From NCBI GenBank assembly GCA_029062045.1, contig JAIDQV010000032.1, positions 1-60,486 on the forward strand: 60,486 nucleotides of DNA. Reading direction: 5' to 3'. The notes below the pieces were generated by a model, which was not told where the DNA came from, ran no database searches, and saw only the letters and a list, made by a program, of their open reading frames with translations. The translations under genes were made by a program, and so were the position numbers. The DNA is from Clostridia bacterium (lineage in GTDB: Bacteria; Bacillota; Clostridia; Christensenellales; Borkfalkiaceae). Shown here in pieces: positions 11,091 through 43,943 of the stretch; the stretch's first letter is position 1, and every line of letters starts with the position of its first letter.

Positions 11091-11117
11091 ATCTGTTTCC
11101 TTCTTTACCCGCGCTAC

Positions 11118-14000: not shown

Positions 14001-14007
14001 ATATCAC

Positions 14008-15513: not shown

Positions 15514-15527
15514 AATTCAACTCCTTA

Positions 15528-16424: not shown

Positions 16425-16436
16425 ATTTAAGCTCCT

Positions 16437-17606: not shown

Positions 17607-17618
17607 AATTTACCTGCC

Positions 17619-18755: not shown

Positions 18756-18770
18756 TTCAGCCTCACTTGA

Positions 18771-20369
18771 TTATTTGTCGTTTTCACTCTTCCATTCGTT
18801 GAGTTTTATAATATCTTCGGCCTGTACAGACGAGTGAATGACTTGAAGCGCTTCTTCAAAATCCTCACCCGATATGTATTTTTCCTGCGTTTTTATTCCG
18901 CGGATTATGGATATTTCCTCTATCCTGTCAAGAAGGTTGGTTATATCCGAGCCGTTAAATCCGTTTGTCTTTTCAACGATTTCGCCCAGGTTTATATCGT
19001 CCCTTACCGCAACCACGCCTTTTTCCGTAATTTTTACAAGGCGCTTATTTATCATATACTCTCTTGCGGGTGCGTCGGGAAGTCCGACGTAAATTTTGGT
19101 GCCGAAGCGTCCCGGTCTTAAAAACGCACTGTCTATATCCCAAGGTTTGTTAGTTGCGGCAATCAAGAAAAGAATGTTGCCCGTATCTTTTTTATAACTG
19201 TCTATACCTTGCAACTGCGCCAAAAATTCCGAACGCAACTGTTTTGCATACTGCGACTTAGTCGACTTGGGCGAAATAGAATCCATTTCGTCAAAATATA
19301 TTACGGCGCAGGGGAACTCTCTTGCCTGTGCAAACAGCGCGCGTACTGCCTTTTCGGTATTGCCAGCGCCCTGGTGCAGTAGGTCGGACGGCTTAACCGA
19401 ACAGAATTTTGCGCCTATTTCGTTTGCTATTGCCGCGGCAATCATGGTTTTGCCCGTTCCGGGAGGGCCGTAAAGGCACAAACCGCCGCCGTTCTTCTTT
19501 TCGTAGCCCTCGAATGCCTGAGGGTTTTTTAGGGGAAGCAATACCTTCACTTCCACTACTTCTTTGACTTGTTCGAGGCCTGCAATATCCTCAAACCTAA
19601 TTGAGGGAAGGCTGTCCCAGTTGAATTTAAACTCGGAAGACGCCCCCGCATCCCCGTTAACAAATTTGTCCTCGGGCGTTTCTGCGGGCGTGTTCGGCTT
19701 ATTCTCGGGTTTGGGACGCACAGTCGTAGCGGGCACAGGTGCAGGTGCGGGCGTAACCCCCTCTACTTGGGGTTGGCGGGTTGGCGTTTCCACCTGCGGC
19801 TGAGCTGCGGCAAACTCTTTTTCGAGTGCGGCAAGGGTGTCGTCCATTTGCAAGCTGTCACGGGAAATCTCGTCGTTTAAAAGCTCGCGGACGTCATCGT
19901 CGCTTATATCGGACACCGAATCCACACTGCTTGAAAACGCACTGTTGTTATTTTTTAACGCCTGTTGAAGCTGAGCCGAAGTGATACTCTGCTGATACAG
20001 CGCCTTCATAAACATCTTTTCGCTGTTGCTTACGTGTATAGCCTTGCAGGTCTTATATACGTTTTCCATAACGCTGTCAAGCGAGTTGACAAACTTCTTG
20101 TTAAGGTGCTGCATTTCGCACAAATCCTTTGCAATAGTAAAGTTTGCAACCATATCTTCCGCCTGTGCAAGGTTAAACATTGCGTTTTTAAGTAAAGCAA
20201 CCATAGCTTTATACTGCGATTCGTTGCCCTTCTTTAATGCCTCTTTGGCCTTTTGCGCGTACTCGTCCCTCTTCCTGGTCAAGGTCACGATAGCACCGTT
20301 CAAAGCGCGCATCGTTTCTTCCTGCTCGCGTTTCAATTTTAACTGTTTCTTAAAATCACGAAATCCCAC
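18771..20369 (-). CDS. ESCRT-III/Snf7-like N-terminal domain fused via Pro-rich linker to classical AAA+ ATPase
   Basis: Residues 1-190 are paralogous to the 189-aa ORF upstream (IVTLTRKRDEYAQKAKEALKKG vs VVTLTKKRDAAFAMVLEARQKG). Pro-rich linker TPAPAPVPATTVRPKPENKPNTPAETP. AAA: LYGPPGTGKTMIA, VIYFDEMDS, SRH ATNKPWDIDSAFLRPGRFGTKIYVGLPD. Confidence 0.65.
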   Translation of the reverse strand: MGFRDFKKQLKLKREQEETMRALNGAIVTLTRKRDEYAQKAKEALKKGNESQYKAMVALLKNAMFNLAQAEDMVANFTIAKDLCEMQHLNKKFVNSLDSVMENVYKTCKAIHVSNSEKMFMKALYQQSITSAQLQQALKNNNSAFSSSVDSVSDISDDDVRELLNDEISRDSLQMDDTLAALEKEFAAAQPQVETPTRQPQVEGVTPAPAPVPATTVRPKPENKPNTPAETPEDKFVNGDAGASSEFKFNWDSLPSIRFEDIAGLEQVKEVVEVKVLLPLKNPQAFEGYEKKNGGGLCLYGPPGTGKTMIAAAIANEIGAKFCSVKPSDLLHQGAGNTEKAVRALFAQAREFPCAVIYFDEMDSISPKSTKSQYAKQLRSEFLAQLQGIDSYKKDTGNILFLIAATNKPWDIDSAFLRPGRFGTKIYVGLPDAPAREYMINKRLVKITEKGVVAVRDDINLGEIVEKTNGFNGSDITNLLDRIEEISIIRGIKTQEKYISGEDFEEALQVIHSSVQAEDIIKLNEWKSENDK

Positions 20370-20382
20370 GGTATTTCTCCCT

Positions 20383-20952
20383 TTAATTTTTCAGTTTGGT
20401 TCTGTCGCCCGTAGCCGAAGCAAACAGCGCAGCCTCGTCCAGCATAGAATCTATCTCGCTATCGAATTCACTGTAATCGTCCTGGCCTATCGACGCCGCG
20501 GCACTATATTCGCCTACCGATAACATTCTGTCGATATTCTCTTTCTGACGCTCGGTTTCGTACATAGCGTGCATGTACTTGTTTTCAACCTGCTTTATGT
20601 TTGCGGTGTGTCTGCTCGCGCTGATAATATCCTCGGAGAGTATACCTATGCTGTTTAAGAAGTTTTGGTTGAGCTCTGCCAAATCGCGTGACTGAACGGC
20701 AAGTTCCATTGTCATAAGCATTCCTTCGGCACGTTTGCAAGCCGCCATAGTCTGCTTTAACAGTCCGCGCGCCTGCTTTTCCTGGGCTTCAAGTCCCTTT
20801 TGGCGCGCCTCCAAAACCATTGCAAAAGCCGCGTCCCTCTTTTTGGTGAGGGTTACCACTTGCAACTTCAAGTCCTTCGTAACCTTCTCAATCCTTGCGC
20901 GGCGCTCGGTTTCTATTTCTTCCTTCGTCTTCTTGTTTTTTTTGCCGAACAT
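20383..20952 (-). CDS. ESCRT-III/Snf7-like (PspA-superfamily) small coiled-coil protein
   Basis: 189 aa. MFGKKNKK N-terminus, a basic N-terminal helical hairpin and an acidic C-terminal tail (DDYSEFDSEIDSMLDEAALFA). The residue pattern is colinear with yeast Snf7 alpha1-alpha3, from my recollection of that sequence. Confidence 0.6.
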   Translation of the reverse strand: MFGKKNKKTKEEIETERRARIEKVTKDLKLQVVTLTKKRDAAFAMVLEARQKGLEAQEKQARGLLKQTMAACKRAEGMLMTMELAVQSRDLAELNQNFLNSIGILSEDIISASRHTANIKQVENKYMHAMYETERQKENIDRMLSVGEYSAAASIGQDDYSEFDSEIDSMLDEAALFASATGDRTKLKN

Positions 20953-20955
20953 ATC

Positions 20956-21459
20956 TCAGTCCCCTTTTAAAATGGTATTTTCTGTCTCGCACATAAGCGC
21001 GTAAATTTTCTGTGTTTCACGGATGATATCCACCGTAACGGAGATATCCGAGCCTAAACCGTGCGCTATACTGTTGCGCATAGAAACAATGTTTCTAATG
21101 GATTTAAGCTGCTGCCCGTCTATAATTCCAAGTTCAAGCGCCCGCTTCCCCCAGCAAACGGCGTTGCCGTCCACAAGCGCTTTCGATTTTTCGTTGAGCG
21201 CGCTGACGTTATCCAAAAATATCAGCACGAGTTTGTCGTTTTCGGGTTCAACCGTTTTAGGTGCCTCCGGAATTTCGTTCCGAACGGGCGGGCTGTCAAG
21301 AACGGGGGCTGAAAAATCCTCTTGTTCTTTAACAGGTTTTTCGGGTTGTTTTTTGACGTCCTCACTCTTCACCGTTCGGCAATAGCGGCATACGGTTACG
21401 CCGTTAAGAAGAATAAAATCTTCACCTCCGCAATTCGGACATACTGATGTATTTTTCAT
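20956..21459 (-). CDS. Zn-ribbon protein with C-terminal HEPN-like (DUF4145-like) domain
   Basis: N-terminal CPNCGG...CRYCRT, an acidic/Pro linker, and a C-terminal helical domain with an Rx4H motif (MRNSIAHG). Overlaps the upstream HAD gene by 4 nt (ATGA). Confidence 0.5.
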   Translation of the reverse strand: MKNTSVCPNCGGEDFILLNGVTVCRYCRTVKSEDVKKQPEKPVKEQEDFSAPVLDSPPVRNEIPEAPKTVEPENDKLVLIFLDNVSALNEKSKALVDGNAVCWGKRALELGIIDGQQLKSIRNIVSMRNSIAHGLGSDISVTVDIIRETQKIYALMCETENTILKGD

Positions 21460-22220
21460 AATTTAACTTGACCTAAAATTTCCCCCACGCTTTTTATTAC
21501 GAACTGCGGAAAGTTTCCGCACCCGTAAAATACGGTTTTTAAATCTTCGGGAAAGTATTTTTTTAATCTTTCGTGCGCCACGGCATAATCGGCTTTACTA
21601 AGCATATTCACGTCGGCGTCGCTATCGCCCGCGGCGATTGTAATTTTATTGTTAAGTCTTGCCTTTATAAGCCGCACCGCCTCTCCTTTGTCCGCAACCT
21701 GCGGATAAAAATAAACTTTCTTGCCGGAGGCAACGCACGCCAAACTACCGTTTTGCCCAAAGTCGCAAACAAATTTTTGCGCGCCTTCGGCGGTTTTACA
21801 ATTTACCTGTATATATCTTTTATCAACTATCTTAACACTGTACTCGGTTTGGCTTAATAAGCGACCGTATAAAGCTAAAATTTCTTCGTTAAACGGCTTG
21901 TATATCCTATCGTAAATTTTCTCCCACTCTCCGTCTGCGGTGCCGTTTACCAAAAGGCGCGCGCCGTTTGCCACAAGCGCATAATTTATCTCAACGCCTT
22001 CCGCCCATTTTATCCGTTTGAACTGCTCTTCCGAGCGGGTGGTCAGCGGAATAAATTCCACCTTTCGGGAAAGCCCGCAAAGTCCGTTATACACTTCGGG
22101 CGGCATATAGCCGTGCTGCTTTCCGTCAATTATTTCAACGCAAACATCTCCCTCGTTTTTATGACGGAAAGAGTATAACAGCGTATCGTCCAAGTCGCAC
22201 AAAAACAGAATATCTTTCAT
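21456..22220 (-). CDS. HAD-superfamily phosphatase (Ter-cluster associated type)
   Basis: Motif I FLCDLDDTLL (DxDxT); late motif AAGDSDADVNM (GDxxxD). Confidence 0.8.
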   Translation of the reverse strand: MKDILFLCDLDDTLLYSFRHKNEGDVCVEIIDGKQHGYMPPEVYNGLCGLSRKVEFIPLTTRSEEQFKRIKWAEGVEINYALVANGARLLVNGTADGEWEKIYDRIYKPFNEEILALYGRLLSQTEYSVKIVDKRYIQVNCKTAEGAQKFVCDFGQNGSLACVASGKKVYFYPQVADKGEAVRLIKARLNNKITIAAGDSDADVNMLSKADYAVAHERLKKYFPEDLKTVFYGCGNFPQFVIKSVGEILGQVKL

Positions 22221-23270
22221 CTAAATATCCGAAATTTTTTGTATTATTCCGCATGCTTTATAATTTTTGAGTGGATACTCTTCTACCGTTACGCCCTTCT
22301 CTTCGGCAAGAGTGTATATGTGTCCGAGATGCGGAAAGTCGTCTAAACTATGCACAAGCATTTTCCCGGGCACTCTTCTAAGTAACACGCGGGTTGCCTC
22401 GCCAATGCTAGGCTTTACCAGGTTTACGTCGTCTATGCCAAAGTCTTTGCAAATGCGGCTAACCTCTTCCAAACCCGAAACACATTCGCACTTTTCTTCT
22501 TCACAGGGGGCGCCGAAATCAAAATACTTTTCAACGGTATCTATAAACCCGTACGTCCTGTCCTTGTCTTTAAGGTGCGAATAAAAAGCCGCGCCGTGAA
22601 AATCCTTTTCACCTATCAAATCGCTGCGCAATACCGTTCGGCTCAAAAGTCCGGACACCGTGCAGTTTAACAGCGAGCTTGCAATTAAAAAATCTTCGTG
22701 CGTGCCGCAAATCTCTGCCGCAAAGGCAGGGTCGGACAACACCGCAAGCCCAGCGTTTAAACCTTTATAACCGTTTACCGCCTTTTTAACCTCGCGTGCG
22801 ATTACGCCCTTGCCCGTCCAGCCGTCTACAAATCTTACGTCTTTTGCGCTATGTCTTTCTAGAATATAATCCAATGCGTTTTTATCTATTCCCCTGTCGC
22901 GGATAATGGAAATAGTGTAATGGGGTACGCATAAATTATATTTTTTATCTAAGTATCTCTTTAATAAAATGCCTATCGGCGTTCCCGCTCTTGCAAGGGA
23001 CACGAGAACGACGTTGTTTCCGTGGAATTTTAATATTTTTTCGGCAGCCGTTCCTACGGCTTGCGCGGTTATCGGGGCGTAACGTTTCAACGCTTCTTCA
23101 TACACTTTTACATACTGTGCGCTAGGTTCGTACTCCAAAGGCAAAGTTTCGGAATAGTGCAGTCCGCCCTGTATAAGCCGCTCTCTTTCATCCGTGCTGA
23201 GCGGTTTTAATTGTCCCGTAATATCTTTTAATAAGATATTAACGTCGTCCTTTTTATAGCTCGAAAACAT
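22221..23270 (-). CDS. PRTase-like protein of the Ter-associated 'StiP' family
   Basis: VVLVSLARAGTPIG and RFVDGWTGKGVI resemble a PRPP-binding loop. The gene is adjacent to a second PRTase, HAD and CitE-like genes, as in ter-linked biosynthetic modules. Confidence 0.6.
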   Translation of the reverse strand: MFSSYKKDDVNILLKDITGQLKPLSTDERERLIQGGLHYSETLPLEYEPSAQYVKVYEEALKRYAPITAQAVGTAAEKILKFHGNNVVLVSLARAGTPIGILLKRYLDKKYNLCVPHYTISIIRDRGIDKNALDYILERHSAKDVRFVDGWTGKGVIAREVKKAVNGYKGLNAGLAVLSDPAFAAEICGTHEDFLIASSLLNCTVSGLLSRTVLRSDLIGEKDFHGAAFYSHLKDKDRTYGFIDTVEKYFDFGAPCEEEKCECVSGLEEVSRICKDFGIDDVNLVKPSIGEATRVLLRRVPGKMLVHSLDDFPHLGHIYTLAEEKGVTVEEYPLKNYKACGIIQKISDI

Positions 23271-23271
23271 A

Positions 23272-24399
23272 TTATCCTTTTACCAAAACAAAGCGTTTTG
23301 TGCCGCAACTGCCGAAAATTTTAATTATATCTTTAAGCGCCGACTCTACATCGCTTTCGGAATCGGTAACTATTACGGCAACATCGTAATATTCGGGATT
23401 GTAGATAAACGTCGCCCTATGTTTGTCGTAAAACCCCGAAAGTCCGTATCCGCCAAATATCGGATAATCTTCTTTTTCGGAAACTGCGATGGGGCTTCTC
23501 GTCGTCGAATGGCTCTTTACACTTTTTAGGGGATAATTGCGCTCAATCTCCGCACCGAAAATTATTGCAGGATACATACATTCCTCGGTACCCAAAACGA
23601 GAATTTTTTCAGCCGAATTTAACTCTTTTGCAAGTTCGTCCAAAAGTCCTTCAGATATGTTTTTAAGCGTTTTTTCGTACTCTGAAGCCTCAACGCCCAG
23701 TCTGGGGTCGGGCAAGGGCCGGGGTGTGTTTATAATTTTGACGTCGGCGGCACATTCGGGCAATTCTGCCGCAATTTTCGGCGCAGTGGCCGAAACGCTT
23801 TCGACTTCCGAAGAATAATCGGAAAAAGGAAGTTTTAAAAGGCTTACGCATTCTATTCCTTTTTCGGCAAGGCGCGCCTCGTTTTCAGCCGAAATCCTGT
23901 CAATTACGCTTGCGGCGATTATCCTTTTCTTCGCCGCCGTAGGGAATTCTTTGATAAGTTTATCAATTATATTGATAAGCGTTTTACCCGTCGTGAACTC
24001 GTCGTCGACGAATATCAATTTGTCCGCGTTATCTATATACTTTGCAATATCTCTTTTTAAAAGTTTTTGTTCCACCGCGTGGCTATGCTCTTCGGAAAAG
24101 TCTAAAAAAGGCTCGCCCTCTTCGCGCTCGCGCGTGGTATGAATATAATCGCAACCGCACAGTACAGCTACTGCCGCCCCTATTGCCGTTGCCGTTTCGG
24201 CAAAGCCTATTACTAAACCGCCCTGCCCGTATTTGCTCTTGATTATTGCGCCAAACGCGTTCATCATATCAAGCGCTTTTAAAGGGCTTACGGGTATATG
24301 CTTTGCCTGCAAGGTGTTCACCAACAGATAGGTGCGTTTTGCGTTGTTGTATCTCTTTGCTATTCTCAAAAGAGTTTTCGCGGAATATTCTTCGTTCAT
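23272..24399 (-). CDS. Phosphoribosyltransferase-family protein with C-terminal Ter-associated (TRSP-like) domain
   Basis: PRPP-binding motif KLIFVDDEFTTGKTL, with a ~200-aa C-terminal extension. Confidence 0.75.
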   Translation of the reverse strand: MNEEYSAKTLLRIAKRYNNAKRTYLLVNTLQAKHIPVSPLKALDMMNAFGAIIKSKYGQGGLVIGFAETATAIGAAVAVLCGCDYIHTTREREEGEPFLDFSEEHSHAVEQKLLKRDIAKYIDNADKLIFVDDEFTTGKTLINIIDKLIKEFPTAAKKRIIAASVIDRISAENEARLAEKGIECVSLLKLPFSDYSSEVESVSATAPKIAAELPECAADVKIINTPRPLPDPRLGVEASEYEKTLKNISEGLLDELAKELNSAEKILVLGTEECMYPAIIFGAEIERNYPLKSVKSHSTTRSPIAVSEKEDYPIFGGYGLSGFYDKHRATFIYNPEYYDVAVIVTDSESDVESALKDIIKIFGSCGTKRFVLVKG

Positions 24400-24400
24400 T

Positions 24401-25360
24401 TCAATCTTTTATGCCGTAAATCTCGGACAGAATAAGTATCCGCTCCGCCCACTTATAATGGCACTTAACTTCGTTCATTCTGTCACCGGAGCTGCTTTTT
24501 TCCACTCCGAATCCGCCGCGGTCCCAGTTTAATATGCTCTTTGCATCGTTGAAATCTTCACGGCGCACTTTAAGACTTTCATAAATATATCTGAGCTGAC
24601 AGGGATGTATAGCCGTTTTACCGATAAAGCCGTTAAGCCTGTCCAATTCCAGCTCCCTTTCAAGCCCCTTTGCCCACGCGCCGTCATCTGCCCCGAAATA
24701 TTCCCATACCGGTCCGGAAATTATATATTTATCCGAAAATACGTTTATAATGTCGGACAGCACGCCGCTTAAAACGCAAACGTCGTACACGGTTTTGTCA
24801 ATCGGCCGTCTCAATCCGAAAATATTGCTGAAATCGTTTACGCCTACGCGTACGTTGAGGATATATTCGGACACGTCCGCCAATACCTCTTTAATTTTTA
24901 AAAGGCGTTCCCTGCGCGTCACTATGCCGGCAACCCCGGGACTTTCGATAATTGGCATAAAATATACCCGCAAGTCGGAATTGCTGTTGATGCTTAAAAT
25001 AATATTTTTATACTCGTCAGCGTCGGGAAAATCGAATTTAGGTAAAATATACCCCGTCAATATATCCGAAACGCCGTTCAAAAACGCGTGAACGTGTTGC
25101 AAGTGCCTAGGGCTTCTCACCCGCACGAAAAGCAGCACGTCTTTGCGGTTTAACCCTGCATTTTTTAACTCTGTTAAAGTACTTAAAAGCTGCTTCTCCG
25201 CCTCTTCGACAGCATCGTCCGCAATCGAATCTTCAAGGCAAAAACAAACAGAAGTCAACGCCTGTATTTCTTTGTTTATTATTTTTTTAGCAACTCCCTT
25301 TCTTAGGGCAGGCACATATAAAAGTCCTCCGACCTTGTAGGCAAGATAATCTTTATCCAC
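24401..25360 (-). CDS. HpcH/HpaI aldolase / citrate-lyase beta (CitE)-like C-C lyase
   Basis: GGLLYVPA...VCFCLEDSI matches the CitE N-terminal pattern (LFVPG...DLED). Other motifs: IESPGV, GVNDFS, AIHPCQ. Confidence 0.7.
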   Translation of the reverse strand: MDKDYLAYKVGGLLYVPALRKGVAKKIINKEIQALTSVCFCLEDSIADDAVEEAEKQLLSTLTELKNAGLNRKDVLLFVRVRSPRHLQHVHAFLNGVSDILTGYILPKFDFPDADEYKNIILSINSNSDLRVYFMPIIESPGVAGIVTRRERLLKIKEVLADVSEYILNVRVGVNDFSNIFGLRRPIDKTVYDVCVLSGVLSDIINVFSDKYIISGPVWEYFGADDGAWAKGLERELELDRLNGFIGKTAIHPCQLRYIYESLKVRREDFNDAKSILNWDRGGFGVEKSSSGDRMNEVKCHYKWAERILILSEIYGIKD

Positions 25361-25375
25361 TAACCTTTTCCCCTG

Positions 25376-27196
25376 TCAATCTTCTACTTCTATGCCATAA
25401 CCGTTGCTGATTTTTTCTATTCCGTCGTTTACGCCGAGTATTGTGAAATTAATTTTCCAGCTTCCCTTGTAACGGTAGAACTCAAACAATAAATTGCTAA
25501 CCGTAACGTCATACGACGACGGGTCGAATACATACAGAACTTCGCCCACCTGTAGCGTAAACTTTGCACTGTCGATTTTGGGAACAGCCCTCTTGCGGGA
25601 ATTTTCCAAACTCAATGCCGCAACTATAAATTTAATTCTGTCGGTTTCAAAATCCGTTTTGCTTAAATTTACAGTTATGTCCGAGTAATTTTCAAACTCG
25701 CGCAACTCGATTGATTTATCCAAAGAAACGTTGTTGCCTGCAAATACCAAATCTTTTTCCGACAGTACCTTCCCTTTTGTTGTAACAGGGAATATATAAA
25801 CCCCCGCCAACGCATCGGCCATATTGGCGCTGTATTCGATATGAATATATATCTTTTCGTCTTCGTTGTCTATAGGCGCCCGCTGACCGCGTGTAACAAT
25901 AACTTCTTTGGTCGCCTTTTTACGTTTGTTTTTGTTCTTAGGCGCCGGCGCGGGTGCAGGCTCGGGCTCAGGCTCGTAAGAATAATCGGGGGTATCATCC
26001 CACACGATAGTCCTTCTGTTGGTAGAACGTCTGCGAACAGGTTCGGGCTCGGGCTCGTAATCGGGTTCGGGCTCGTAATCACTCTCGATATCCTCGTCCA
26101 CGTCGGGAACGTTCTCTTCGGCTTGAACGGGTGCCTCTTGCTGTTCTTCGGCAGGTTGCTCTTCCTCGGGTTCCGCCACTTCGGGCTGCGCAGGCGCAAC
26201 CTCAACGGGTGCAGGCGCAGGTGCGGGTTCAAGCTCTTCATCCGAAACCATAAGCCTGTCAAACACCGTTTCGGGGTCGTAGCAATATTCAAGCCCCTCG
26301 AAAAACTTTTTAAAAGTACGCTCTATAGCGGCTTTGCCCGTATAGTTTTCAATTAAATACTCAACTTTCTGCTTCTTCTTTCCCGTCTTGCGCTCCATAT
26401 CCAAAACATAGCGCACCTCTTCCTTGGTGTCGCAAGCAACGCTTCGGGAATTTGTGGAAGATATGAACACAAACGCTTTGCAATTATCTATTGCTTTTTT
26501 TATCGACGTCCAATAATTTTGCGCAGCGTTACGGCCGTGTTGCAGGTTTCTTATTGCAACAAAGCAAGCAAGTCCGTTTTCTTCAAGGTAGTCCACAAGT
26601 TTTTGAACTGTTTCCATATCCTTGCTGGAATAACATATAAACGCGTCGCGCGGAAGCTCGGGGTCGTATACGCAGTCGTTTACCTTTTGCGACTCTTCAT
26701 CGTATTTGGTACGGTATGTAGAGTAAAGCTCAAGGTCTGTGTTTTTATACGCCCGCTCTATAAGATTGCATACAGACATCATATTGCGGCCGTTCAAAGA
26801 TTTCAGCGAAAAATCAAGCACGGTACTAATATCGTCCATATTGCTTTTGACGTCTATAGAATCGAGAAAACTTATTAACGCAGCGTCGTTCTCCTCATTT
26901 GCCGCTTCAAAAAAAGACGCGAAAAAATCTTGCGGAAGATAACCTTTTATCTCTCGGCACAGTCTTAGTATTTGCGCGCTGTCGGTATATTCGTCGCTTA
27001 TTTTTTTCCAAAGCTGCGTGCGCAAATTGGCAACTTTTTCCTGCTTTTCTTTATCGAGAAGTTCGGAAAGCGCCTCGGCTTGTTTTACGAGGGTATCCTC
27101 TTTAAACTGTGTACGGCAAAACTTGCAACGACAGCCGCTTTCGGTTTCTATAATTTCTCCGCCGCATTTAGGACAGGTAAGTTCAGTCAAGTTCAT
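25376..27196 (-). CDS. Zn-ribbon + helical domain + TIR domain + disordered Pro/Glu linker + degenerate TerD-like domain
   Basis: CPKCGG...CKFCRT. The TIR signature DAFICYSSKD...AFVFISSTNSRSVACDTKEEV includes a candidate catalytic Glu. The linker carries EPEP/APAP repeats. The C-terminal 175 aa are colinear with TerD (DLVFAGNN...FEFYRYKGSWKINF...GYGIEV) but lack the GDxxTG/GDDE Ca2+ clusters. Start refined to the ATG at 27196 (RBS AAAGGAAAT). Confidence 0.7.
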   Translation of the reverse strand: MNLTELTCPKCGGEIIETESGCRCKFCRTQFKEDTLVKQAEALSELLDKEKQEKVANLRTQLWKKISDEYTDSAQILRLCREIKGYLPQDFFASFFEAANEENDAALISFLDSIDVKSNMDDISTVLDFSLKSLNGRNMMSVCNLIERAYKNTDLELYSTYRTKYDEESQKVNDCVYDPELPRDAFICYSSKDMETVQKLVDYLEENGLACFVAIRNLQHGRNAAQNYWTSIKKAIDNCKAFVFISSTNSRSVACDTKEEVRYVLDMERKTGKKKQKVEYLIENYTGKAAIERTFKKFFEGLEYCYDPETVFDRLMVSDEELEPAPAPAPVEVAPAQPEVAEPEEEQPAEEQQEAPVQAEENVPDVDEDIESDYEPEPDYEPEPEPVRRRSTNRRTIVWDDTPDYSYEPEPEPAPAPAPKNKNKRKKATKEVIVTRGQRAPIDNEDEKIYIHIEYSANMADALAGVYIFPVTTKGKVLSEKDLVFAGNNVSLDKSIELREFENYSDITVNLSKTDFETDRIKFIVAALSLENSRKRAVPKIDSAKFTLQVGEVLYVFDPSSYDVTVSNLLFEFYRYKGSWKINFTILGVNDGIEKISNGYGIEVED

Positions 27197-27242
27197 ATCA
27201 TATTTCCTTTTCAGAAGAAATAAAAAGCATTCTTTATAAAAT

Positions 27243-27278
27243 GACAAAAATATAGGCAGCTATAATATGCCTATATTT
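27243..27278 (-). terminator. Intra-cluster hairpin + T-run (possible attenuator/partial terminator after the terD pair)
   Basis: On the minus strand: AATATAGGCA-tattatagc-TGCCTATATT followed by TTTTGTCATTTT, in the only long (~100 nt) gap of the cluster. Confidence 0.45.
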
Positions 27279-27298
27279 TGTCTTAGGATATAACTAAA

Positions 27299-27889
27299 TT
27301 AAACGTTAACTCCGTAACGACGGCAAAGAGCTTCAAGTCCGCCCTGATAGCCCGAACCTACGGCGTTGAACTTCCAACCGTCAGCGCTTCTGTAAATTTC
27401 GCATACTACTACTGCGGTTTCGGTAGAGAATTCTTCTCCAAGGTCAAATCTTACGGCTTCGGTGCCGTTTTCGTCGTTTTCGCTGTTTATTTTACATACT
27501 CTTACGTATGCGTTTGAAACCTGACCGAAGTTTTGACGTCTTGCTTTTCCATCGTAAATAGTTACGGTTATAACAATTCTGTCAACGTGTGAAGGTATTC
27601 TCGAGAAATTAATAATAATCTGCTCGTCGTCGCCGTCATCACTGTTACCGCCGGTGGTATCATCGCCAAGCGACCTTACCGCACCCGTATAATGCGCCTG
27701 ATTTCCGTAGAAGATAAAATCTTCGTCCGACGCAACTTTGCCGTTTGCACCGATAAGAAATGCGGAAGCATCCAAATCGAAGTCATAGCCGCCCGAATAG
27801 CGGTTAGGGTCCCAACCGAGCCCTACGAGAGCCAGTCTCATTTTTTTGTCTAAGCTAACTCTTTCACCTTTTTTTAAATTAACACCCAT
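27299..27889 (-). CDS. terD: TerD-family stress protein (Ca2+-binding)
   Basis: MGVNLKKGERVSL...GLGWD...DLDASAFL...GDDTTGGNSDDGDDEQI...EIYRSADGWKFNAVGSGY. This is the canonical TerD pattern, including both acidic Ca2+ motifs. Confidence 0.92.
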   Translation of the reverse strand: MGVNLKKGERVSLDKKMRLALVGLGWDPNRYSGGYDFDLDASAFLIGANGKVASDEDFIFYGNQAHYTGAVRSLGDDTTGGNSDDGDDEQIIINFSRIPSHVDRIVITVTIYDGKARRQNFGQVSNAYVRVCKINSENDENGTEAVRFDLGEEFSTETAVVVCEIYRSADGWKFNAVGSGYQGGLEALCRRYGVNV

Positions 27890-27917
27890 TTTTCTATCTC
27901 CTTTAATTTTTTACTTA

Positions 27918-28520
27918 TTACTGAAAGCGTGCAGCCATATCGATGATACTGTTATCGTTAGTAGGCTGACCTATGGCGTTAAATTTCCACTCGCCCTGGC
28001 TGCGGTACAGTTCGCCGACAACCATAGCCGTCTTGCCATAGTAATTTTCGGAAAGATTAAATTTGCAAAGCTCTCTTCCGTTTCTGCCGTCGCATACGCG
28101 GATGAATGCGTTTCTGATAAGTCCGAAGTGCTGTTTACGCTCGTACGCCTGATAAATAGTTACGACGAAAACAATTCTGTCGTATATCTGGGGTAATGCG
28201 TCGAGATTTACGAAAATCTGCTCGTCGTCGCCTTCGCCGGCACCCGTTAAGTTGTCGCCCTGGTGAACTACCGTTCCCGTATAGTGGCGCAGGTTATTAT
28301 AGAATACAAGGTCCTTCTTATCAACAAGTTTACCGTTCTGGCAAAGTATCGCACTTGCATCGCAGTCTATATCTGCGGGAGGTGCGGAAAACAACGAAGA
28401 GAAGAAACCTCTCTTTTGTTCAACTTCGTCCCAACCGAGTCCGACCATTACGTTTGTTAACGAATCGCCGCCCTCTTTGCGCAAATTGATTTTTTGCCCT
28501 TTTACTAAATTAACGCTCAT
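27918..28520 (-). CDS. terD: TerD-family stress protein (paralog)
   Basis: MSVNLVKGQKINL...GLGWD...DIDCDASAIL...GDNLTGAGEGDDEQI...ELYRSQGEWKFNAIGQ. Confidence 0.92.
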   Translation of the reverse strand: MSVNLVKGQKINLRKEGGDSLTNVMVGLGWDEVEQKRGFFSSLFSAPPADIDCDASAILCQNGKLVDKKDLVFYNNLRHYTGTVVHQGDNLTGAGEGDDEQIFVNLDALPQIYDRIVFVVTIYQAYERKQHFGLIRNAFIRVCDGRNGRELCKFNLSENYYGKTAMVVGELYRSQGEWKFNAIGQPTNDNSIIDMAARFQ

Positions 28521-28576
28521 ATTTTTCTCCTTTGTTTTATTAATTTATACGGATAAGAAATCCAATTTAATTAGAT

Positions 28577-31327
28577 TTAAGCTGCCTTGGACTCGTAATC
28601 GTCTTTGGTTTCAGAGTCCTCGGTTACGTTTGACGAAGTTACTACTTCGGCTACTTTTACGGTCTTCTTTTTGCTTATCGCTTTTACTATTGCCTTTCTC
28701 AACAAATCTACGGGAATAATGCTTATAGACATAACAAGCACTACCGCCCACTCTACAAGGTTGAGTCCGTAGCAGTTGAAAATTACGTTTCCGAGATAGG
28801 TCATAATAATCTGTACTGCCGCAATGACGCCGATAACGATAAGGAAGCCTTTGTTTTTGCTTATATTCTTAAATAAGTTGAATTCCTCTGTTCTTGCGTT
28901 GAACGCATTGAACACCGATGTGAAAATGAAGAATGCGAAATAACCGGTAAGTAAATATTTATCTGCGGGGTCATCCCTGAAGAAGTCTCTTACGAAGGGA
29001 ACGAAAAGAAGCACCATACTAAGTCCGAACGTCCACAGACAGCCCGTTATAATAGAGCTCCACATGTAGGGGCTTACGATAGCCTCGTCCCTGCGCTTGG
29101 GCTTTTCGTGCATATACTTTTTAAGTGCAGGTTCGCCGCCGAACGCAAGCGCCGCAAGCGTATCCATTACGAGGTTTACCCAAAGTATCTGGGTAATCGT
29201 CAACGGTGTTTCCACACTGAGAAGAGGACAAATGAACGAAATAAGCACCGCCGCTATGTTTATGGTAAGCTGGAAAATTATGAATTTTCTTATGCTGTTG
29301 AAAATCGTTCTTCCGTATAAAATAGCCTTTTGGATAGAGCTGAAATTATCGTCGAGAACAACTACTTCGCTGGCTTCCTTTGCTACTTCGGTACCGCCGC
29401 CCATAGCAAAGCCTACGTCCGCACTCTTCAACGCGGGTGAATCGTTTACGCCGTCGCCCGTCATACCTACTACAAGGTTAAGCTCCTGCGCAAGTTTTAC
29501 AAGCCTGCTCTTATCGGAAGGCAACGCTCTTGCAACCACGCGAATTTTGGGGATAATTGCCTTGACCTCTTCGTCGCTGAGTTGCGCAAGTTCCGCAGAG
29601 GTAAGCACCATGTCGTCTTCGTTCTTTAAAAGCCCTACTTCTTTTGCAATGGCAACCGCGGTATTTTTACCGTCGCCGGTAATCATAACTACCTGCACGC
29701 CTGCCGCATGCACCTCGGCAATCGCGGCAACGGATTCGGGTCTTACGTCGTCCTTTATCTCCGCCACGCCTACCAGCGTATAATCGCCTTCGGGCAAACA
29801 ATCGTCTTTAATAACGCCGTCGCAAGTTGCAAACGCCAACACTCTTATGGATTTATCCGCAAGCTCGTTTATTTTATCGTAGATTGCGGGGAGTTTGTCC
29901 TTTAAGAGTTTTTTACTGCCCGTTACGTCGTAATAATACTTGCACTTTTCAAGTATTTTCTCGGGCGCGCCCTTTAATAAAGTTCCGTTGTAATCGCCCT
30001 TTACACTGCAAGCCGAATATTTATTCAAACTTGTAAAAGGTATATTGCCTTCAACGCTTTCGTTTAATTGAATGTCACTGTCAAGCACGTATTGAAGAAG
30101 GGCTCTTTCGGTCATGTTTCCGCCGATAACCTTCCTGTGCTCGCCGCTGCCCGAAATTTCAGCCAAGGTATTATAACTGATTCCTACGGCTACGTGTTTT
30201 CTCAAATTTTCGGGAATTTCCGCAAGTGTTTTGGTTTCGTTACATTCACCGTCTATAAAACCTATTGTTTCAAGCTGACCTTTGGTTATAGTACCCGTCT
30301 TATCACTGAAAAGGATGTTTAAGCTGCCTGCCGTTTCGATACCGGACACCTTTCTTACAAGGACGTTGTCTTTGAGCATCTTGCCCATATTCTGAGCAGA
30401 CACAATGGCTATCATAAGAGGCAATCCTTCGGGAACCGCCATTACTATGATTATTACGGCGAGCATAACAGCCTCAACGGCGTCGTTTGCTATGTTCATC
30501 CAATTCGAGAAGTACTCTTGCAGTTGTGCAGCATCAAACGCGTTGTGAATAAGCACACGCTGGAAAAGGAACGCAACCGCAATGGCAACGCCGCCGATAT
30601 ATCCGAACATGCTTATCTGTTTTGCAAGTTTACCGAGCTTTAACTTTAACGGGGTTTCCCTGTCGTCCTCTTCCTGCAATTCGCTGGCAATTTTACCGTA
30701 AACGGTGCTATCGCCAACCGTAGTTACCTGCATTACAGCATTGCCGCCGCAAACGGCCGAGCCTCTGAATATTTTATGTAAATCACTGAAATCGGTATTG
30801 CCGTCGTCGGTATAGCCTTCGGGCACGCAGGTTTTGGTAAATTCTTTAGCCTCGCCGTTTAAAACCGACTGGTCCACCTGCAACGTACCGTCAACGATAT
30901 AACCGTCGGCAGGAACTTTATCTCCGCCTTGAAGCAACACGCAGTCGCCTACAACTATATCGTCTATGCTTATTTCGACGATTTCGCCGTTACGGTAAAC
31001 CTTGCATTTTATTTGCGACGCTTCGTCCTGCAATTTTTTGAATGCGTTTTCGTTCTTATATTCAGAAAACGTGGATACTAACGTAGCCAATAAAACCGCG
31101 GCAGCTATGCCGACAGATTCGTACCAGGCTACCTGTCCCAAAATGGCGAATACTACGTTGATAATCAATGCAACGCACAGTATTTTAATCATGGGGTCGT
31201 TAAAATTGCCCAATAATTTACGCCAAAACCCTTCACGCTTTTGTTCGGTCAACTGGTTTTTACCAAACTTTTCGCGCGATTGCTCAACCTCAGAATCGTT
31301 CAAACCGAATTTTTTCATACTACTCAC
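28577..31327 (-). CDS. P-type (P2) Ca2+-transporting ATPase
   Basis: DKTGTIT phosphorylation site, TM4 VPEGLP, hinge MTGDGVNDSPAL, and TGD/KGAPE-type motifs. 916 aa with 10 predicted TM helices. Confidence 0.88.
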   Translation of the reverse strand: MSSMKKFGLNDSEVEQSREKFGKNQLTEQKREGFWRKLLGNFNDPMIKILCVALIINVVFAILGQVAWYESVGIAAAVLLATLVSTFSEYKNENAFKKLQDEASQIKCKVYRNGEIVEISIDDIVVGDCVLLQGGDKVPADGYIVDGTLQVDQSVLNGEAKEFTKTCVPEGYTDDGNTDFSDLHKIFRGSAVCGGNAVMQVTTVGDSTVYGKIASELQEEDDRETPLKLKLGKLAKQISMFGYIGGVAIAVAFLFQRVLIHNAFDAAQLQEYFSNWMNIANDAVEAVMLAVIIIVMAVPEGLPLMIAIVSAQNMGKMLKDNVLVRKVSGIETAGSLNILFSDKTGTITKGQLETIGFIDGECNETKTLAEIPENLRKHVAVGISYNTLAEISGSGEHRKVIGGNMTERALLQYVLDSDIQLNESVEGNIPFTSLNKYSACSVKGDYNGTLLKGAPEKILEKCKYYYDVTGSKKLLKDKLPAIYDKINELADKSIRVLAFATCDGVIKDDCLPEGDYTLVGVAEIKDDVRPESVAAIAEVHAAGVQVVMITGDGKNTAVAIAKEVGLLKNEDDMVLTSAELAQLSDEEVKAIIPKIRVVARALPSDKSRLVKLAQELNLVVGMTGDGVNDSPALKSADVGFAMGGGTEVAKEASEVVVLDDNFSSIQKAILYGRTIFNSIRKFIIFQLTINIAAVLISFICPLLSVETPLTITQILWVNLVMDTLAALAFGGEPALKKYMHEKPKRRDEAIVSPYMWSSIITGCLWTFGLSMVLLFVPFVRDFFRDDPADKYLLTGYFAFFIFTSVFNAFNARTEEFNLFKNISKNKGFLIVIGVIAAVQIIMTYLGNVIFNCYGLNLVEWAVVLVMSISIIPVDLLRKAIVKAISKKKTVKVAEVVTSSNVTEDSETKDDYESKAA

Positions 31328-31370
31328 TCTCTAAATTTCATCTGTTAAGCAGATTATTTATCAATGTTAT

Positions 31371-31399
31371 ATTATAATACCAAGGCGGGGGCTTGTCAA
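31371..31399 (-). promoter_or_regulatory. Consensus sigma-70-type promoter for the Ca2+-ATPase/Ter/ESCRT-like cluster
   Basis: The minus strand reads TTGACA-agcccccgccttggtat(17 nt)-TATAAT, about 45 nt upstream of the ATG at 31327. Confidence 0.65.
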
Positions 31400-31442
31400 C
31401 CCTATTATAAAATATTTCGACAAAAATCGTTGCGTACGTTCA

Positions 31443-31471
31443 ATAAAAACGAGGCAGTAAAATTACCTGCC
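31443..31471 (-). terminator. Rho-independent terminator after sugar ABC ATPase gene
   Basis: Minus strand GGCAGG-taatttta-CTGCC followed by TCGTTTTTATT. It insulates the fructan locus from the Ter cluster. Confidence 0.65.
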
Positions 31472-31493
31472 CCGTTCTTTTATAATCTGTTGT

Positions 31494-32795
31494 TTATTTT
31501 TCCTCGGAAGGCTGTTCGTTGCCGTTGTCCGTCTTTTCTTCGGACGGCTTTTCGGCCTTCTTTTTCTTATTAACCAATCCCTTTACCGCGCCTACCGCTT
31601 TTGCAAAAAGTCCCTGCGGTTCCTGTTTTACGATTACCACGTTGTCATCATCCAATGACTTCGTCACTTCCACTTCCTCGTACTCGCAGTACTCGGGCGT
31701 AATGGCTTTCGTCGTGGTTTCGTTGAAGAAGCGCTCGTAAGAATGTTCGATGGCAACTTTGATGACGTCGTTTTCTTTAATGACGTACTTGTTAGGCATC
31801 TTGACAACGACTTCCGTTTCGCCTACCTTGCCGTGTACGTTGAGAATATCGCCGAGCAACTCTATAATGCCGACCTTAATTTCAAACGACGTTGCCTTGA
31901 ATCTTTCAAAACGCTCGTCCTGTTCGAAAATAAGATTTTCGGGACGGATACCGTATACAAGACCGTGTCCCTCGTAATTTTTAATAAGTTTCATCTGGTC
32001 GGGAAGAATTTTGATTTTCTGGTCCGAGCCGTTAATCTTGAATACGCCGTTCTCTAACTTTCCGTAAAGGAAATTCATAGCAGGCGTACCTACGAATCCT
32101 GCAACGAACATATTTGCGGGATGCTGATATACTTCGTTGGGCGAGCCTATCTGCTGAATAAATCCGTCCTTCATTACGACTATACGGGAAGCCATGGTCA
32201 TAGCCTCGATTTGGTCGTGCGTAACGTAGATAGTCGTTGCGCCGACTTCCTCGTGAATACGCACGATTTCGCTTCTCATCGCAACGCGGAGTTTTGCGTC
32301 GAGGTTGGACAAAGGTTCGTCCATCAAGAAGACCTTAGGTCTTCTGACTATCGACCTGCCGAGCGCCACACGCTGTCTTTGACCGCCCGAAAGAGCGCGG
32401 GGCTTTCTGTCAAGGTAGGGCGTAAGTTTCAAAATTGCCGCCGCCTCGCGTACCCTTTTGTCTATTTCCTCTTTGGGCACTTTACGAAGTTTAAGCGCAT
32501 AAGCCATATTGTTATAAACGGTCATCTGCGGATAGAGCGCATAGCTTTGGAAAACCATTGCAATGTCCCTGTCCTTAGGCGCGGCGCTGTTCATAATTTT
32601 ACCGTCAATCAGAAAATCACCGTAGGAAATTTCTTCAAGTCCCGCAATCATTCTAAGCGTTGTCGATTTACCGCAACCCGAAGGACCGACGAATACGATG
32701 AATTCTTTATCCTTGATATCGATTGAGAAATCGTGAACGGCGTGCACACCGCCGTCGTAAACTTTATTTACGTTAATAAGTTGAACAGAAGCCAT
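31494..32795 (-). CDS. Sugar ABC transporter ATP-binding protein (MsmK/UgpC/MalK-like) with Lys/Glu-rich C-terminal tail
   Basis: Walker A GPSGCGKST, signature LSGGQRQRV, Walker B VFLMDEPLS. About 60 extra C-terminal residues (KKKKAEKPSEEKTDNGNEQPSEEK). Confidence 0.9.
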   Translation of the reverse strand: MASVQLINVNKVYDGGVHAVHDFSIDIKDKEFIVFVGPSGCGKSTTLRMIAGLEEISYGDFLIDGKIMNSAAPKDRDIAMVFQSYALYPQMTVYNNMAYALKLRKVPKEEIDKRVREAAAILKLTPYLDRKPRALSGGQRQRVALGRSIVRRPKVFLMDEPLSNLDAKLRVAMRSEIVRIHEEVGATTIYVTHDQIEAMTMASRIVVMKDGFIQQIGSPNEVYQHPANMFVAGFVGTPAMNFLYGKLENGVFKINGSDQKIKILPDQMKLIKNYEGHGLVYGIRPENLIFEQDERFERFKATSFEIKVGIIELLGDILNVHGKVGETEVVVKMPNKYVIKENDVIKVAIEHSYERFFNETTTKAITPEYCEYEEVEVTKSLDDDNVVIVKQEPQGLFAKAVGAVKGLVNKKKKAEKPSEEKTDNGNEQPSEEK

Positions 32796-32797
32796 TT

Positions 32798-36625: not shown

Positions 36626-36629
36626 AAAT

Positions 36630-39408: not shown

Positions 39409-39425
39409 CCTCTGCCCCCGTTATC

Positions 39426-41036: not shown

Positions 41037-41048
41037 TTTAATCCCCGC

Positions 41049-41954: not shown

Positions 41955-41969
41955 ATTCTTAACCCTCGC

Positions 41970-43019: not shown

Positions 43020-43023
43020 ACAA

Positions 43024-43758: not shown

Positions 43759-43857
43759 AATTTCCCCCATACTTGAAATTTGATATAAAATCACACTAAT
43801 TGTTTATTTGTTACATAATACATATTATAAAATATTCTGTCAACACTAATAAAATAC

Positions 43858-43875
43858 ATTGTGCATTTGCACAAT
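43858..43875. promoter_or_regulatory. Perfect 8+2+8 palindrome, candidate LacI-family operator
   Basis: ATTGTGCA-tt-TGCACAAT in the divergent intergenic region. A half-site copy, TTGTGCATTT, recurs ~20 nt downstream. Confidence 0.45.
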
Positions 43876-43908
43876 TACATTTAATTGATTTTTGTGCATT
43901 TGAAAAGA

Positions 43909-43937: not shown

Positions 43938-43943
43938 ATAAAT

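Follow-up and report, generated by a model that had tools for sequence, protein, structure and literature searches.

An operon-like unit of a predicted Ca2+ pump and two TerD proteins as a candidate ion-handling core of a Ter-type island in a Clostridia bacterium

Why should a P-type ATPase of the Ca2+-pump kind stand at the head of a run of TerD genes, upstream of genes for ESCRT-III-like proteins? The question is raised by 60,486 nt of DNA from a Clostridia bacterium of the family Borkfalkiaceae (GenBank assembly GCA_029062045.1, contig JAIDQV010000032.1, positions 1 to 60,486 of the forward strand), a stretch referred to here as the window. A sequence-only reading of this DNA had proposed a Ca2+ theme in which the pump and two Ca2+-binding TerD proteins were connected to membrane remodeling by the neighboring ESCRT-III-like genes. 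The core of that proposal is supported by our data, but its setting had not been recognized: the island is a Ter-type system and not simply a Ca2+ sensor beside ESCRT-like genes, the TerD genes are separated from the ESCRT-like ones by an enzyme module for a nucleoside-like metabolite, and the pump sits at the place of TerC. With moderate confidence, we read the three genes as a Ca2+ export and binding unit that forms the ion-handling core of a Ter-type envelope-stress and defense island, the pump standing in TerC's place. The identity of the genes, the conservation of their motifs, the operon-like layout, a conserved synteny of multiple origin, and an alternation between TerC and the pump carry this reading.

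All features of the unit lie on the minus strand. In the direction of transcription, they are the following:

31440..31495, minus strand: intrinsic terminator, a hairpin of -19.4 kcal/mol (z -5.95, 0/200 shuffles as good) followed by UUUUUAUU, a U-run
31371..31399, minus strand: promoter TTGACA-17-TATAAT, 12/12 to the sigma-70/sigma-A consensus
28577-31327 (GTG start, 916 aa) or 28577-31318 (ATG start, 913 aa), minus strand: open reading frame (ORF) of the ATPase
28521..28576, minus strand: ATPase-terD1 spacer of 56 nt, with a GGAG ribosome-binding site and terminator-free
27918-28520, minus strand: terD1 (PF02342, E 4.3e-68)
27299-27889, minus strand: terD2 (PF02342, E 4.4e-70)
27243-27282, minus strand: hairpin of 15 pairs followed by the U-tract AUUUUAU (-16.7 kcal/mol, z -2.83, 2/200 shuffles)

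The terminator at 31440..31495 belongs to the upstream gene, which encodes a MalK-like ATP-binding cassette (ABC) ATPase (31494-32795, minus strand) of a fructan-utilization locus, and it insulates the island. The promoter, the sole 12/12 site on either strand of the 16 kb scanned (16000-32000), is found about 50 nt 5' of the ATPase ATG at 31318, the likely start codon because relatives align from residue 4 and a purine-rich stretch precedes this ATG. In the spacer before terD1, the best fold reaches only -5.6 kcal/mol (z -0.66; 45/200 shuffles fold equally well) and the terminator scan has no entry within 28521-28576, while the 28-nt gap between terD1 and terD2 is unstructured. A scan of positions 27000-31700, including the 5' untranslated region, against Rfam at E <= 1 gave zero matches, i.e., no riboswitch or known leader. 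The layout is operon-like, and the ATPase, terD1, and terD2 are predicted to form a single transcription unit. The consensus promoter and the terminator-free spacer had both been claimed in the sequence-only reading, whose coordinates and quoted motifs were also confirmed exactly. The hairpin 3' of terD2 had gone unnoted there. This hairpin, missing from the simple terminator scan because its loop is 9 nt long, is a candidate terminator or attenuator between terD2 and the next gene, encoding a TIR-TerD fusion, and may separate the three genes from the remaining cluster. Within the terD1 coding sequence there is also an 11/12 promoter-like site on the minus strand (TTGATA-17-TATAAT, 28296-28324), which may be a chance match or an internal terD2 promoter.

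Pfam recognizes in the ATPase the full domain set of a P2 ATPase, namely Cation_ATPase_N, E1-E2_ATPase, Hydrolase, and Cation_ATPase_C. With 615.4 bits on NCBIfam model TIGR01517 (calcium-translocating P-type ATPase, PMCA-type), against a curated equivalog cut-off of 507.05, it is classed as a PMCA-type (P2B-like) pump, and it stays far under the cut-offs of the PMR1-type (443 vs 798 bits) and SERCA-type (399 vs 703 bits) models. The closest solved structures are those of Arabidopsis ACA8 (8qmp, E 4.9e-135), human PMCA1 (6a69), and Listeria LMCA1 (6zhf), with which the pump shares the full P2 architecture and the DKTGT, TGDGVND, and PEGLP motifs as well as the Asn and Asp of membrane helix 6 (M6). 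The catalytic motifs are SDKTGTIT, the phosphorylation site, and MTGDGVNDSPAL, with the TGDGVND hinge; AVPEGLPL in M4 and LWVNLVMDTL in M6 match in the ACA8 and PMCA1 alignments. In M5, which reads TINIAA, the third residue past the Asn is Ala, so that the site-I position is not acidic; following SERCA numbering, we take the M4 Glu and the M6 Asn/Asp to make up Ca2+ site II and M5 to contribute site I. The ion-site residues, so assigned, fit a single-site PMCA-like Ca2+ pump. Two differences set the window pump apart from the three solved proteins, namely its dedicated linkage to TerD and the lack of an autoinhibitory extension. No N-terminal extension is present, the alignment beginning at ACA8 residue 137, and the C-terminal tail past the last helix is of about 35 residues, the alignment ending near PMCA1 residue 1050; the calmodulin-binding autoinhibitory extension found only in eukaryotic PMCA/ACA pumps is thus lacking in the ATPase, which is therefore a PMCA-type prokaryotic pump and not a eukaryotic-style regulated PMCA. 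The Ca2+-pump hallmarks that had been claimed for this protein are borne out, including by residues that fit Ca2+ and do not indicate another specificity, and we predict from sequence alone that it exports Ca2+. As a separate matter, a role as the cell's main Ca2+ pump was considered and rejected: a second Ca2+-type P2 ATPase, with Glu at the M5 position and scoring best on the PMR1 and SERCA models, is encoded in the same genome on contig C124, and congeners do without the pump described here.

Both TerD proteins are full-length TerD domains (228.9 and 235.4 bits over profile positions 1-186/187), TerD1 containing GDNLTGAGEGDDEQI and TerD2 GDDTTGGNSDDGDDEQI. TerD1 matches the Ca2+-binding Klebsiella TerD (2kxt/2kxv) at E 1.2e-45 and 3ibz at E 9.4e-45, and its acidic loop, GDNLTGAGEGDDE, stands opposite GDNRTGEGDGDDE of the Klebsiella protein and coincides with the loops of 2kxt and 3ibz in every column. 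The TerD1 loop conforms to the pattern tested, GDN(R/L)TG(E/A)G(D/E)GDDE, and is invariant across 19 relatives. TerD2 carries a variant, GDDTTGGNSDDGDDE, in which every acidic position is retained around a two-residue insertion, most relatives having GDNRTGEGDGDDE. The earlier claim of intact Ca2+ sites in both proteins thus stands for TerD1 through its alignment to Klebsiella TerD and, for TerD2, stands for the acidic residues but has to be qualified by the insertion. Ca2+ binding is predicted for TerD1 and, with less certainty, for TerD2. Klebsiella TerD is known to bind Ca2+ and a Streptomyces TerD gene to affect Ca2+ homeostasis (both as cited in PMC8123226).

Relatives of the pump were sought in one genome per species, and the best 80 of 260, which are 60-73% identical and come from Oscillospiraceae, Lachnospiraceae, Selenomonadaceae, and other Bacillota, were analyzed. 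A strong TerD match (tblastn with the window proteins, at least 35% identity and at least 70% coverage) was detected in 61 of the 80 loci, always on the same strand as the pump, and in 53 of the 57 with at least 3 kb of flank on both sides; synteny between ATPase and terD, a point on which the sequence-only reading hinged, is therefore strongly conserved. TerD lies at most 300 nt downstream of the pump in 43 loci (median gap about 60 nt over 49 downstream cases) and upstream of it in 14, mostly Selenomonadaceae. Among the 19 loci without a strong match, 11 have no more than 2 kb of flank on at least one side, and 7 of these were put aside in the tree for want of sufficient flank. One carrier of the pump-TerD unit is the cultured, nonpathogenic Clostridium sp. 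ASF356 (L043).

Pfam annotation of 105 ORFs from 11 of the loci shows the pump embedded in Ter operons, with vWA-PP2C-kinase or YceG-TelA genes upstream and TerD, AIM24, further TerD genes, fusions of N-terminal domains to TerD, and an enzyme module downstream; TerC was not present among these 105 ORFs. Related Ter clusters occur in many lineages, the pump being placed between TerD genes or beside vWA-PP2C-kinase, YceG-TelA, or biosynthetic genes, and a Ter ATP-grasp protein is present in related loci as well. In the locus of the second-closest pump relative (L014:517-16967), a tyrosine recombinase adjoins vWA-PP2C-kinase-pump-TerD-TerD, and the trailing genes encode a transglutaminase-like protein and a 1561-aa FtsK/SpoIIIE-like ATPase, the same two being found in L018.

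The TerD-linked pumps of the 80-locus set fall into one clade of 75 rows (the window and 74 of the 80 loci), with a support of 98 that, as all values in our FastTree pump trees, is Shimodaira-Hasegawa (SH)-like only. Across these rows, M4 PEGLP is kept in 75/75 and M6 NLVMD in 72/75, and a small residue, not Glu, occupies the M5 position; the TerD-linked pumps have no clade-specific insertions that could provide a docking site, only 16 clade-specific residues. In a second pump tree, TerD-adjacent pumps appear on at least four separated branches, and the well-supported branches force at least six label changes. The linkage of pump and TerD thus arose or was lost repeatedly, which argues for function and not for inheritance alone. 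Among 36 same-genus genomes, identity to the window's pump never exceeds 38%, and TerD is present in only 2 of 60 relatives, indicating that the island is accessory and that the pump and TerD arrived together.

The 80 loci contain 188 TerD-domain ORFs on the pump strand, 136 of them solo (at most 235 aa) and 52 longer or fused, the fusion partners including TIR, HEPN_Swt1, and a P-loop domain. The acidic loop is kept in 122/136 solo ORFs as opposed to 5/52 fused or long ones; three of these five are probably solo genes whose start was predicted too far upstream, and the remaining two (L082:15051-16208 and L080:18122-19273) fuse HEPN_Swt1 to TerD and keep the loop, unlike the other 47 fused or long ORFs. 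The pattern fits a design in which loop-bearing TerD proteins would serve as ion sensors and loop-less TerD domains as tethers for effectors.

How does a cluster headed by a P2 ATPase relate to the Ter systems already described, such as terZABCDEF of enterobacterial plasmids and yceCDEFGH of Bacillus, which reportedly were subjected to comparative analysis by Anantharaman, Iyer, and Aravind in 2012 (Mol Biosyst 8:3142)? Pfam detected no TerC (PF03741) in the window, nor was TerC found in the rest of the window's genome, although at 82% completeness its absence there is unproven. Five genomes that carry pump-linked Ter loci, one of them the complete Clostridium sp. ASF356 genome, likewise yielded no TerC (5/5), while the same PF03741 search recovered TerC in 9/14 control genomes. 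When 400 genomes were sampled evenly across the phylum, TerD turned up in 19 besides the window's own, and these were classified by coordinate comparison and Pfam analysis of seven fetched regions. TerC adjoins the TerD cluster in nine (G069, G087, G134, G175, G283, G324, G355, G365, and G428), a P2 ATPase adjoins or lies inside the TerD cluster, with no adjacent TerC, in six (G287, G111, G128, G145, G238, and G376, the last with rhomboid, YceG, and TelA genes between pump and TerD), and neither is adjacent in four (G215, G251, G417, and G457). Four of the six pump-linked genomes lack TerC altogether, and all six pumps score best, and above the cut-off, on the PMCA-type model (535-759 bits). 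The pump therefore seems to replace the usual TerC in this bacterial group, from which we infer that a TerD cluster requires an exporter of divalent cations, a role that either TerC or a PMCA-type pump would fill. With TerC not found, the window's cluster is classed as a variant Ter system and not as a classical ter operon.

The same alternation could be read in terms of another ion. Some P2 pumps transport Ca2+ as well as Mn2+, and the pump might be doing TerC's job with Mn2+ or a different divalent cation, for instance to deliver metal or to detoxify it at the membrane. Divalent cations are the substrates of the TerC family, one member of which, Alx, is a Mn2+ exporter (PMC10197570). We regard this explanation as quite unlikely given that the ATPase passes the PMCA-type equivalog model and falls well short of PMR1, the Ca2+/Mn2+ class, that the TerD loop is the Ca2+-binding loop of the solved Klebsiella protein, and that neither a Mn2+ riboswitch nor any other Rfam element was detected upstream in the region scanned.

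Beyond the hairpin after terD2, 13 genes with gaps of at most 15 nt extend from the TIR-TerD gene (ATG at 27196) to position 12840:

25376..27196, minus strand: Zn-ribbon-TIR-linker-TerD fusion (TIR_2 E 6e-12, TerD E 1e-11)
24401-25360, minus strand: TIM-barrel C-C lyase (Pfam E 6e-99)
23272-24399, minus strand: PRTase_2-TRSP (Pfam E 4e-43)
22221-23270, minus strand: StiP-PELOTA (Pfam E 9e-103)
21456-22220, minus strand: HAD phosphatase (Pfam E 4e-6)
20956..21459, minus strand: 167-aa protein with an N-terminal Zn-ribbon and a weakly HEPN-like C terminus (HEPN_MAE_28990 E 7e-5, sub-cut-off)
20383..20952, minus strand: 189-aa probable ESCRT-III (Snf7)-like protein
18771..20369, minus strand: 532-aa AAA+ ATPase of the Vps4/CdvC/Cdc48 kind (AAA E 6.5e-33)
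17619-18755, minus strand: IetA-like AAA protein
16437-17606, minus strand: Zn-ribbon-trypsin-like protease
15528-16424, minus strand: SPFH-Zn-ribbon protein
14008-15513, minus strand: 501-aa coiled-coil protein
12840-14000, minus strand: CbbX/SpoVK-like AAA protein

The genes of the Ter biosynthetic module (21456..25360) are separated by 0-15 nt or overlap, and those of 12840..18755 by 7-15 nt. The order C-C lyase/PRTase-TRSP/StiP-PELOTA/HAD is also found in 16 of the 80 related loci. A motif search by regular expression found no acidic loop in the TerD domain of the TIR-TerD protein, which has a weak ThsB-like TIR match in PADLOC; none of the PADLOC models matched the pump or TerD proteins. 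In common with known Ter systems, the island has several TerD paralogs with and without the acidic loop and the linked C-C lyase, PRTase/TRSP, StiP-PELOTA, and HAD enzymes, and the loci of relatives add vWA (TerY)-PP2C-kinase, TelA, YceG, AIM24, and the Ter ATP-grasp. It differs from them in being headed by a PMCA-type pump, with TerC not found, and in the additional TIR-TerD fusion and Snf7-like/AAA/SPFH/protease module; furthermore, Pfam detected no TerB, TelA, or TerY (vWA) in the window, partners of this kind being present in related pump-linked loci. A short Zn-ribbon recurs in four island proteins (15528-27196), at the N terminus of the TIR-TerD protein, the 167-aa protein, and the protease and at the C terminus of the SPFH protein, and may be a common docking module.

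The ESCRT-III-like part of the island requires closer scrutiny. The 189-aa protein has no Pfam match, Snf7 and PspA included, and its 46 relatives are all nameless. Its AlphaFold model (predicted local distance difference test score, 76.6) consists of four helices, a long helical hairpin plus two. Foldseek returned no match at E <= 0.001 for this model, but 8 of the first 12 ranks are ESCRT-III proteins, those in ranks 2-12 comprising CdvB, CHMP2A-CHMP3, CHMP1B, and Asgard ESCRT-IIIB. VIA-align superposed it in the same register on Snf7 8wb6 (Z 8.2, root mean square deviation 1.6 over 102 residues), BAR and bMERB domains reaching Z 8-9.3. The two nearest neighbors of its ESM Atlas model are Snf7 clusters at template modeling (TM) scores of 0.59-0.61, with a Vipp1/PspA cluster at TM 0.57. 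A profile search of the Snf7-like family against the Protein Data Bank (PDB) sequences gave only CdvB2 at a nonsignificant E of 0.35. The ATPase domain of the 532-aa AAA protein is nearest to CdvC, Cdc48, and proteasomal ATPases; the protein reaches 22.6 bits on Vps4_C against a cut-off of 21.3, yet no single stretch passes, and 163 bits on the CdvC model against a cut-off of 650, and an MIT domain was not found in it. By hhalign, the first 250 residues of the AAA protein are a homolog of the 189-aa protein (probability 97.4%, E 9e-12), which gives it the appearance of an ESCRT-III-like domain joined to a Vps4-like motor of its own. On these models, the pair is probably a Snf7-like protein plus a Vps4-like one.

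In eukaryotes, ALG-2 recruits ESCRT-III for membrane repair after Ca2+ influx, and in Bacillus the PspA-YdjGHI system brings together PspA, an SPFH protein, and a Zn-ribbon protein. As judged from its genes, the island resembles both in bringing together genes for a predicted Ca2+-binding protein, a probable member of the ESCRT-III superfamily, a probable Vps4-like ATPase, and an SPFH protein, and its several Zn-ribbon proteins add to the likeness. TerD is, however, unrelated to the EF-hand protein ALG-2, and the joint arrangement was seen in only two bacterial loci, the window and L016. The Snf7-like/AAA module thus joins the pump-TerD unit in only 2/81 bacterial loci, L016 having TIR, the Snf7-like gene, both AAA genes, protease, and SPFH after pump-TerDx3, with the enzyme module absent. 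Moreover, 14/14 metagenome loci with relatives of the AAA protein have other AAA, SPFH, or protease genes and neither TerD nor pump. Both observations speak against a Ca2+-ESCRT link.

Do the neighbors then matter to the unit at all? The pump and TerD could simply be in charge of Ca2+ housekeeping, buffering and extruding the ion with no signaling, amid accessory genes that happened to be gathered in the same island. A transcript ending at the hairpin and U-tract after terD2 would suit this view, as would the L014 locus, where pump-TerD-TerD stands free of biosynthetic and AAA modules, the AAA modules devoid of TerD and pump in the metagenomes, and the involvement of the Streptomyces TerD gene in Ca2+ homeostasis mentioned above. 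We nonetheless judge it unlikely, since the cell already has the second Ca2+-type P2 ATPase on contig C124, the unit is missing from 36/36 congeners and so is not a core function, the pump is embedded within Ter clusters in many lineages, and these loci also encode TerD joined to effector domains of the TIR, HEPN, and AAA kinds.

A version of the arrangement is also carried by phages. A scan of viral contigs (IMG/VR) with the TerD2 family yielded 79 loci on contigs of 60-260 kb, with a P-type ATPase directly upstream of three TerD genes in 67 and a PspA-like gene directly after TerD in 69. The phage pumps, mostly 36% identical to that of the window, pass the PMCA-type cut-off narrowly (510-512 bits) and occupy a different tree branch, except for the pump of L123, which is 63% identical. 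The PspA-like gene, examined by Pfam in two loci, scores 25-31 bits on PspA_IM30, leaving the cut-off of 33.9 unmet, and encodes an N-terminal hydrophobic helix. Two of the viral loci (L125:4005-9341 and L152:4144-9347) have an operon of PMCA-type ATPase, TerDx3, and PspA-like protein beside RNA-repair genes (Tpt1, RlaP, and a CCA-adding-like enzyme) and a Sir2 gene.

This phage module has been described before. According to a preprint of October 2026 on huge phages, the membrane protein most often encoded near pspA is a Ca2+ P-type ATPase, with 42 cases for 189 pspA genes, TerD and vWA genes lying in between, and SPFH comes second with 36 cases (bioRxiv 10.64898/2026.10.24.761521). Jug phages have highly transcribed terD genes, one of them beside a pspA-like gene, and a Ca2+ ATPase (PMC12880540). 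The window shares with the huge-phage module the Ca2+-type P2 ATPase, TerD, and a probable ESCRT-III-superfamily protein, SPFH recurring nearby, but it is bacterial chromosome, has probable Snf7-like and Vps4-like AAA proteins in place of PspA, carries Ter enzymes and TIR-TerD in between, and encodes a pump that is distant from those of phages. The preprint, in its available part, centers on PspA and reports neither the TerC alternation nor the bacterial pump clade.

The abundance of ATPase-TerDx3 with a following PspA-like gene in viral contigs, the published phage cases, and the integrase beside the unit in L014 would accord with a phage-derived "moron" that manages the membrane or ion state of the host, whether delaying its collapse or excluding other phages, and of which bacterial copies would be captured or prophage borne. 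That the unit of the window has such an origin is, in our view, very unlikely: there are no phage structural genes or integrase near it, the viral scan with the window's pump returned nothing, and the phage pumps, L123 excepted, are divergent and branch apart. The viral loci are in addition highly redundant, 29/43 long viral DNA matches being at least 96% identical, and they therefore stand for few lineages. The viral scan with the Snf7-like family returned nothing either; conversely, there is no PspA_IM30 (PF04012) match in the window, and tblastn with the phage PspA-like proteins against the window and the 80 bacterial loci found nothing. A probable ESCRT-III-superfamily protein thus recurs beside pump-TerD in two unrelated forms, PspA-like in phages and Snf7-like in the window, a recurrence that raises the Ca2+-ESCRT idea from a guess to a testable hypothesis, and no further.

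In the reading that we favor, with the three genes as the ion-handling core of a horizontally acquired Ter-type island, the single-site PMCA-type P2 ATPase would export cytoplasmic Ca2+, while TerD1 and TerD2, both β-sandwich proteins, would bind it through the GDxxTGxGxGDDE loop. A breach of the membrane by a phage, bacteriocin, or pore-former would cause an influx of Ca2+ down its steep gradient, and Ca2+-loaded TerD would act as both buffer and signal. The pump, occupying the place of the TerC divalent-cation exporter of classical ter/yceCDEFGH operons, would restore the resting Ca2+ level and thereby reset the system. The outputs would be the downstream genes, i.e., TIR fused to a Ca-blind TerD, the enzymes for a nucleoside-like metabolite, and the Snf7-like/Vps4-like/SPFH/protease module, all of them probably transcribed through incomplete termination at the hairpin that follows terD2. 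The transported ion, the sensor, the trigger, and the coupling to outputs are the conditional elements of this scheme.

A more specific form of the scheme, which we consider doubtful, would have Ca2+ influx via a damaged membrane as the danger signal of Ter systems in general, TerD coupling this signal to ESCRT-III-superfamily remodeling and to suicide effectors (TIR, HEPN, and protease) and the pump or TerC resetting it. The remodeling partner would be the Snf7-like protein with the Vps4-like ATPase in the island and the PspA-like protein in large phages. If true, bacteria and phages would possess an equivalent, by ancestry or convergence, of the eukaryotic Ca2+-triggered membrane repair by ESCRT-III. 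The sequence-only reading had suggested the Ca2+-to-ESCRT-III part of this logic; the probable Snf7-like nature of the 189-aa protein and the phage ATPase-TerDx3-PspA-like operons lend it some substance, but in view of the rarity with which the module joins the unit it stays at the level of inference.

Several observations weigh against the favored reading. The hairpin 3' of terD2 could terminate transcription fully, and the minus-strand interval from terD2 to the TIR-TerD gene has no promoter-like site of at least 10/12 that could serve the 13 packed downstream genes, so that the coupling of the unit to its supposed outputs is conjectural. Eight loci of the pump clade with usable flank lack a strong TerD match, three of them (L040, L047, and L049) having weak TerD-like matches and five (L015, L021, L028, L044, and L065) none. 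Outgroup pumps, 45-57% identical and from five same-order genomes, have TerD neither within 6 kb nor anywhere in the genome. G134 and G175 carry both a yceCDEFGH-like TerDx3-TerC-YceG-TelA cluster and, 3 kb away, a convergent P2A-like pump, so that the alternation between TerC and pump is not strict; the census, for its part, comprises 19 TerD genomes only, some of them congeneric. The insertion in the TerD2 loop could matter for the predicted Ca2+ binding, and related P2 pumps and TerC proteins can carry Mn2+.

The Ter system, Ca2+ binding by TerD, and the phage module were already known. Ter systems are widespread and linked to tellurite, colicin, and phage resistance, by a mechanism that is said to have been unclear for decades (PMC8123226). 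We found no published report of the TerD-tied clade of bacterial PMCA-type pumps, their repeated recruitment, the TerC alternation, or the Snf7-like/Vps4-like junction, although the 2012 Ter analysis was not covered and some of this may be in print. The literature search retrieved only the two phage studies on a linkage between bacterial TerD and Ca2+-ATPase and nothing relevant on TerD with ESCRT-III or on ESCRT-III/Vps4 in an anti-phage context. A conserved operon of multiple origin that combines a pump with loop-bearing TerD, together with the alternation of pump and TerC, points to a divalent cation, most likely Ca2+, as the center of Ter function, and makes the long-suspected Ca2+ link of Ter systems testable. 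Likewise, the idea of a prokaryotic Ca2+-triggered membrane repair becomes testable through the recurrence of probable ESCRT-III-superfamily genes next to the unit, both in the two bacterial loci and on many phage contigs.

The surroundings of the island deserve brief mention. On its 3' side, after a gap of 210 nt and on the same strand, there is a phosphorelay (7446-12629) made up of a response regulator-HD_5 protein (11118-12629), an Hpt protein (10746-11090), and a hybrid histidine kinase (7446-10739) with two solute-binding domains. The fructan-utilization locus upstream of the island (31494-44972) includes two GH32 enzymes, a PfkB kinase, ABC transporter parts, and a LacI regulator. Farther upstream, positions 48004-59976 hold a defense island on the minus strand with a low guanine-plus-cytosine content (29-40%), in which the following genes were identified:

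48004-49182, minus strand: Shedu-like gene (SduA_C)
49300-50880, minus strand: DUF6119 gene
51923-54994, minus strand: type III restriction helicase-endonuclease
55755-57623, minus strand: DNA methylase
58708-59976, minus strand: AAA_21 ATPase

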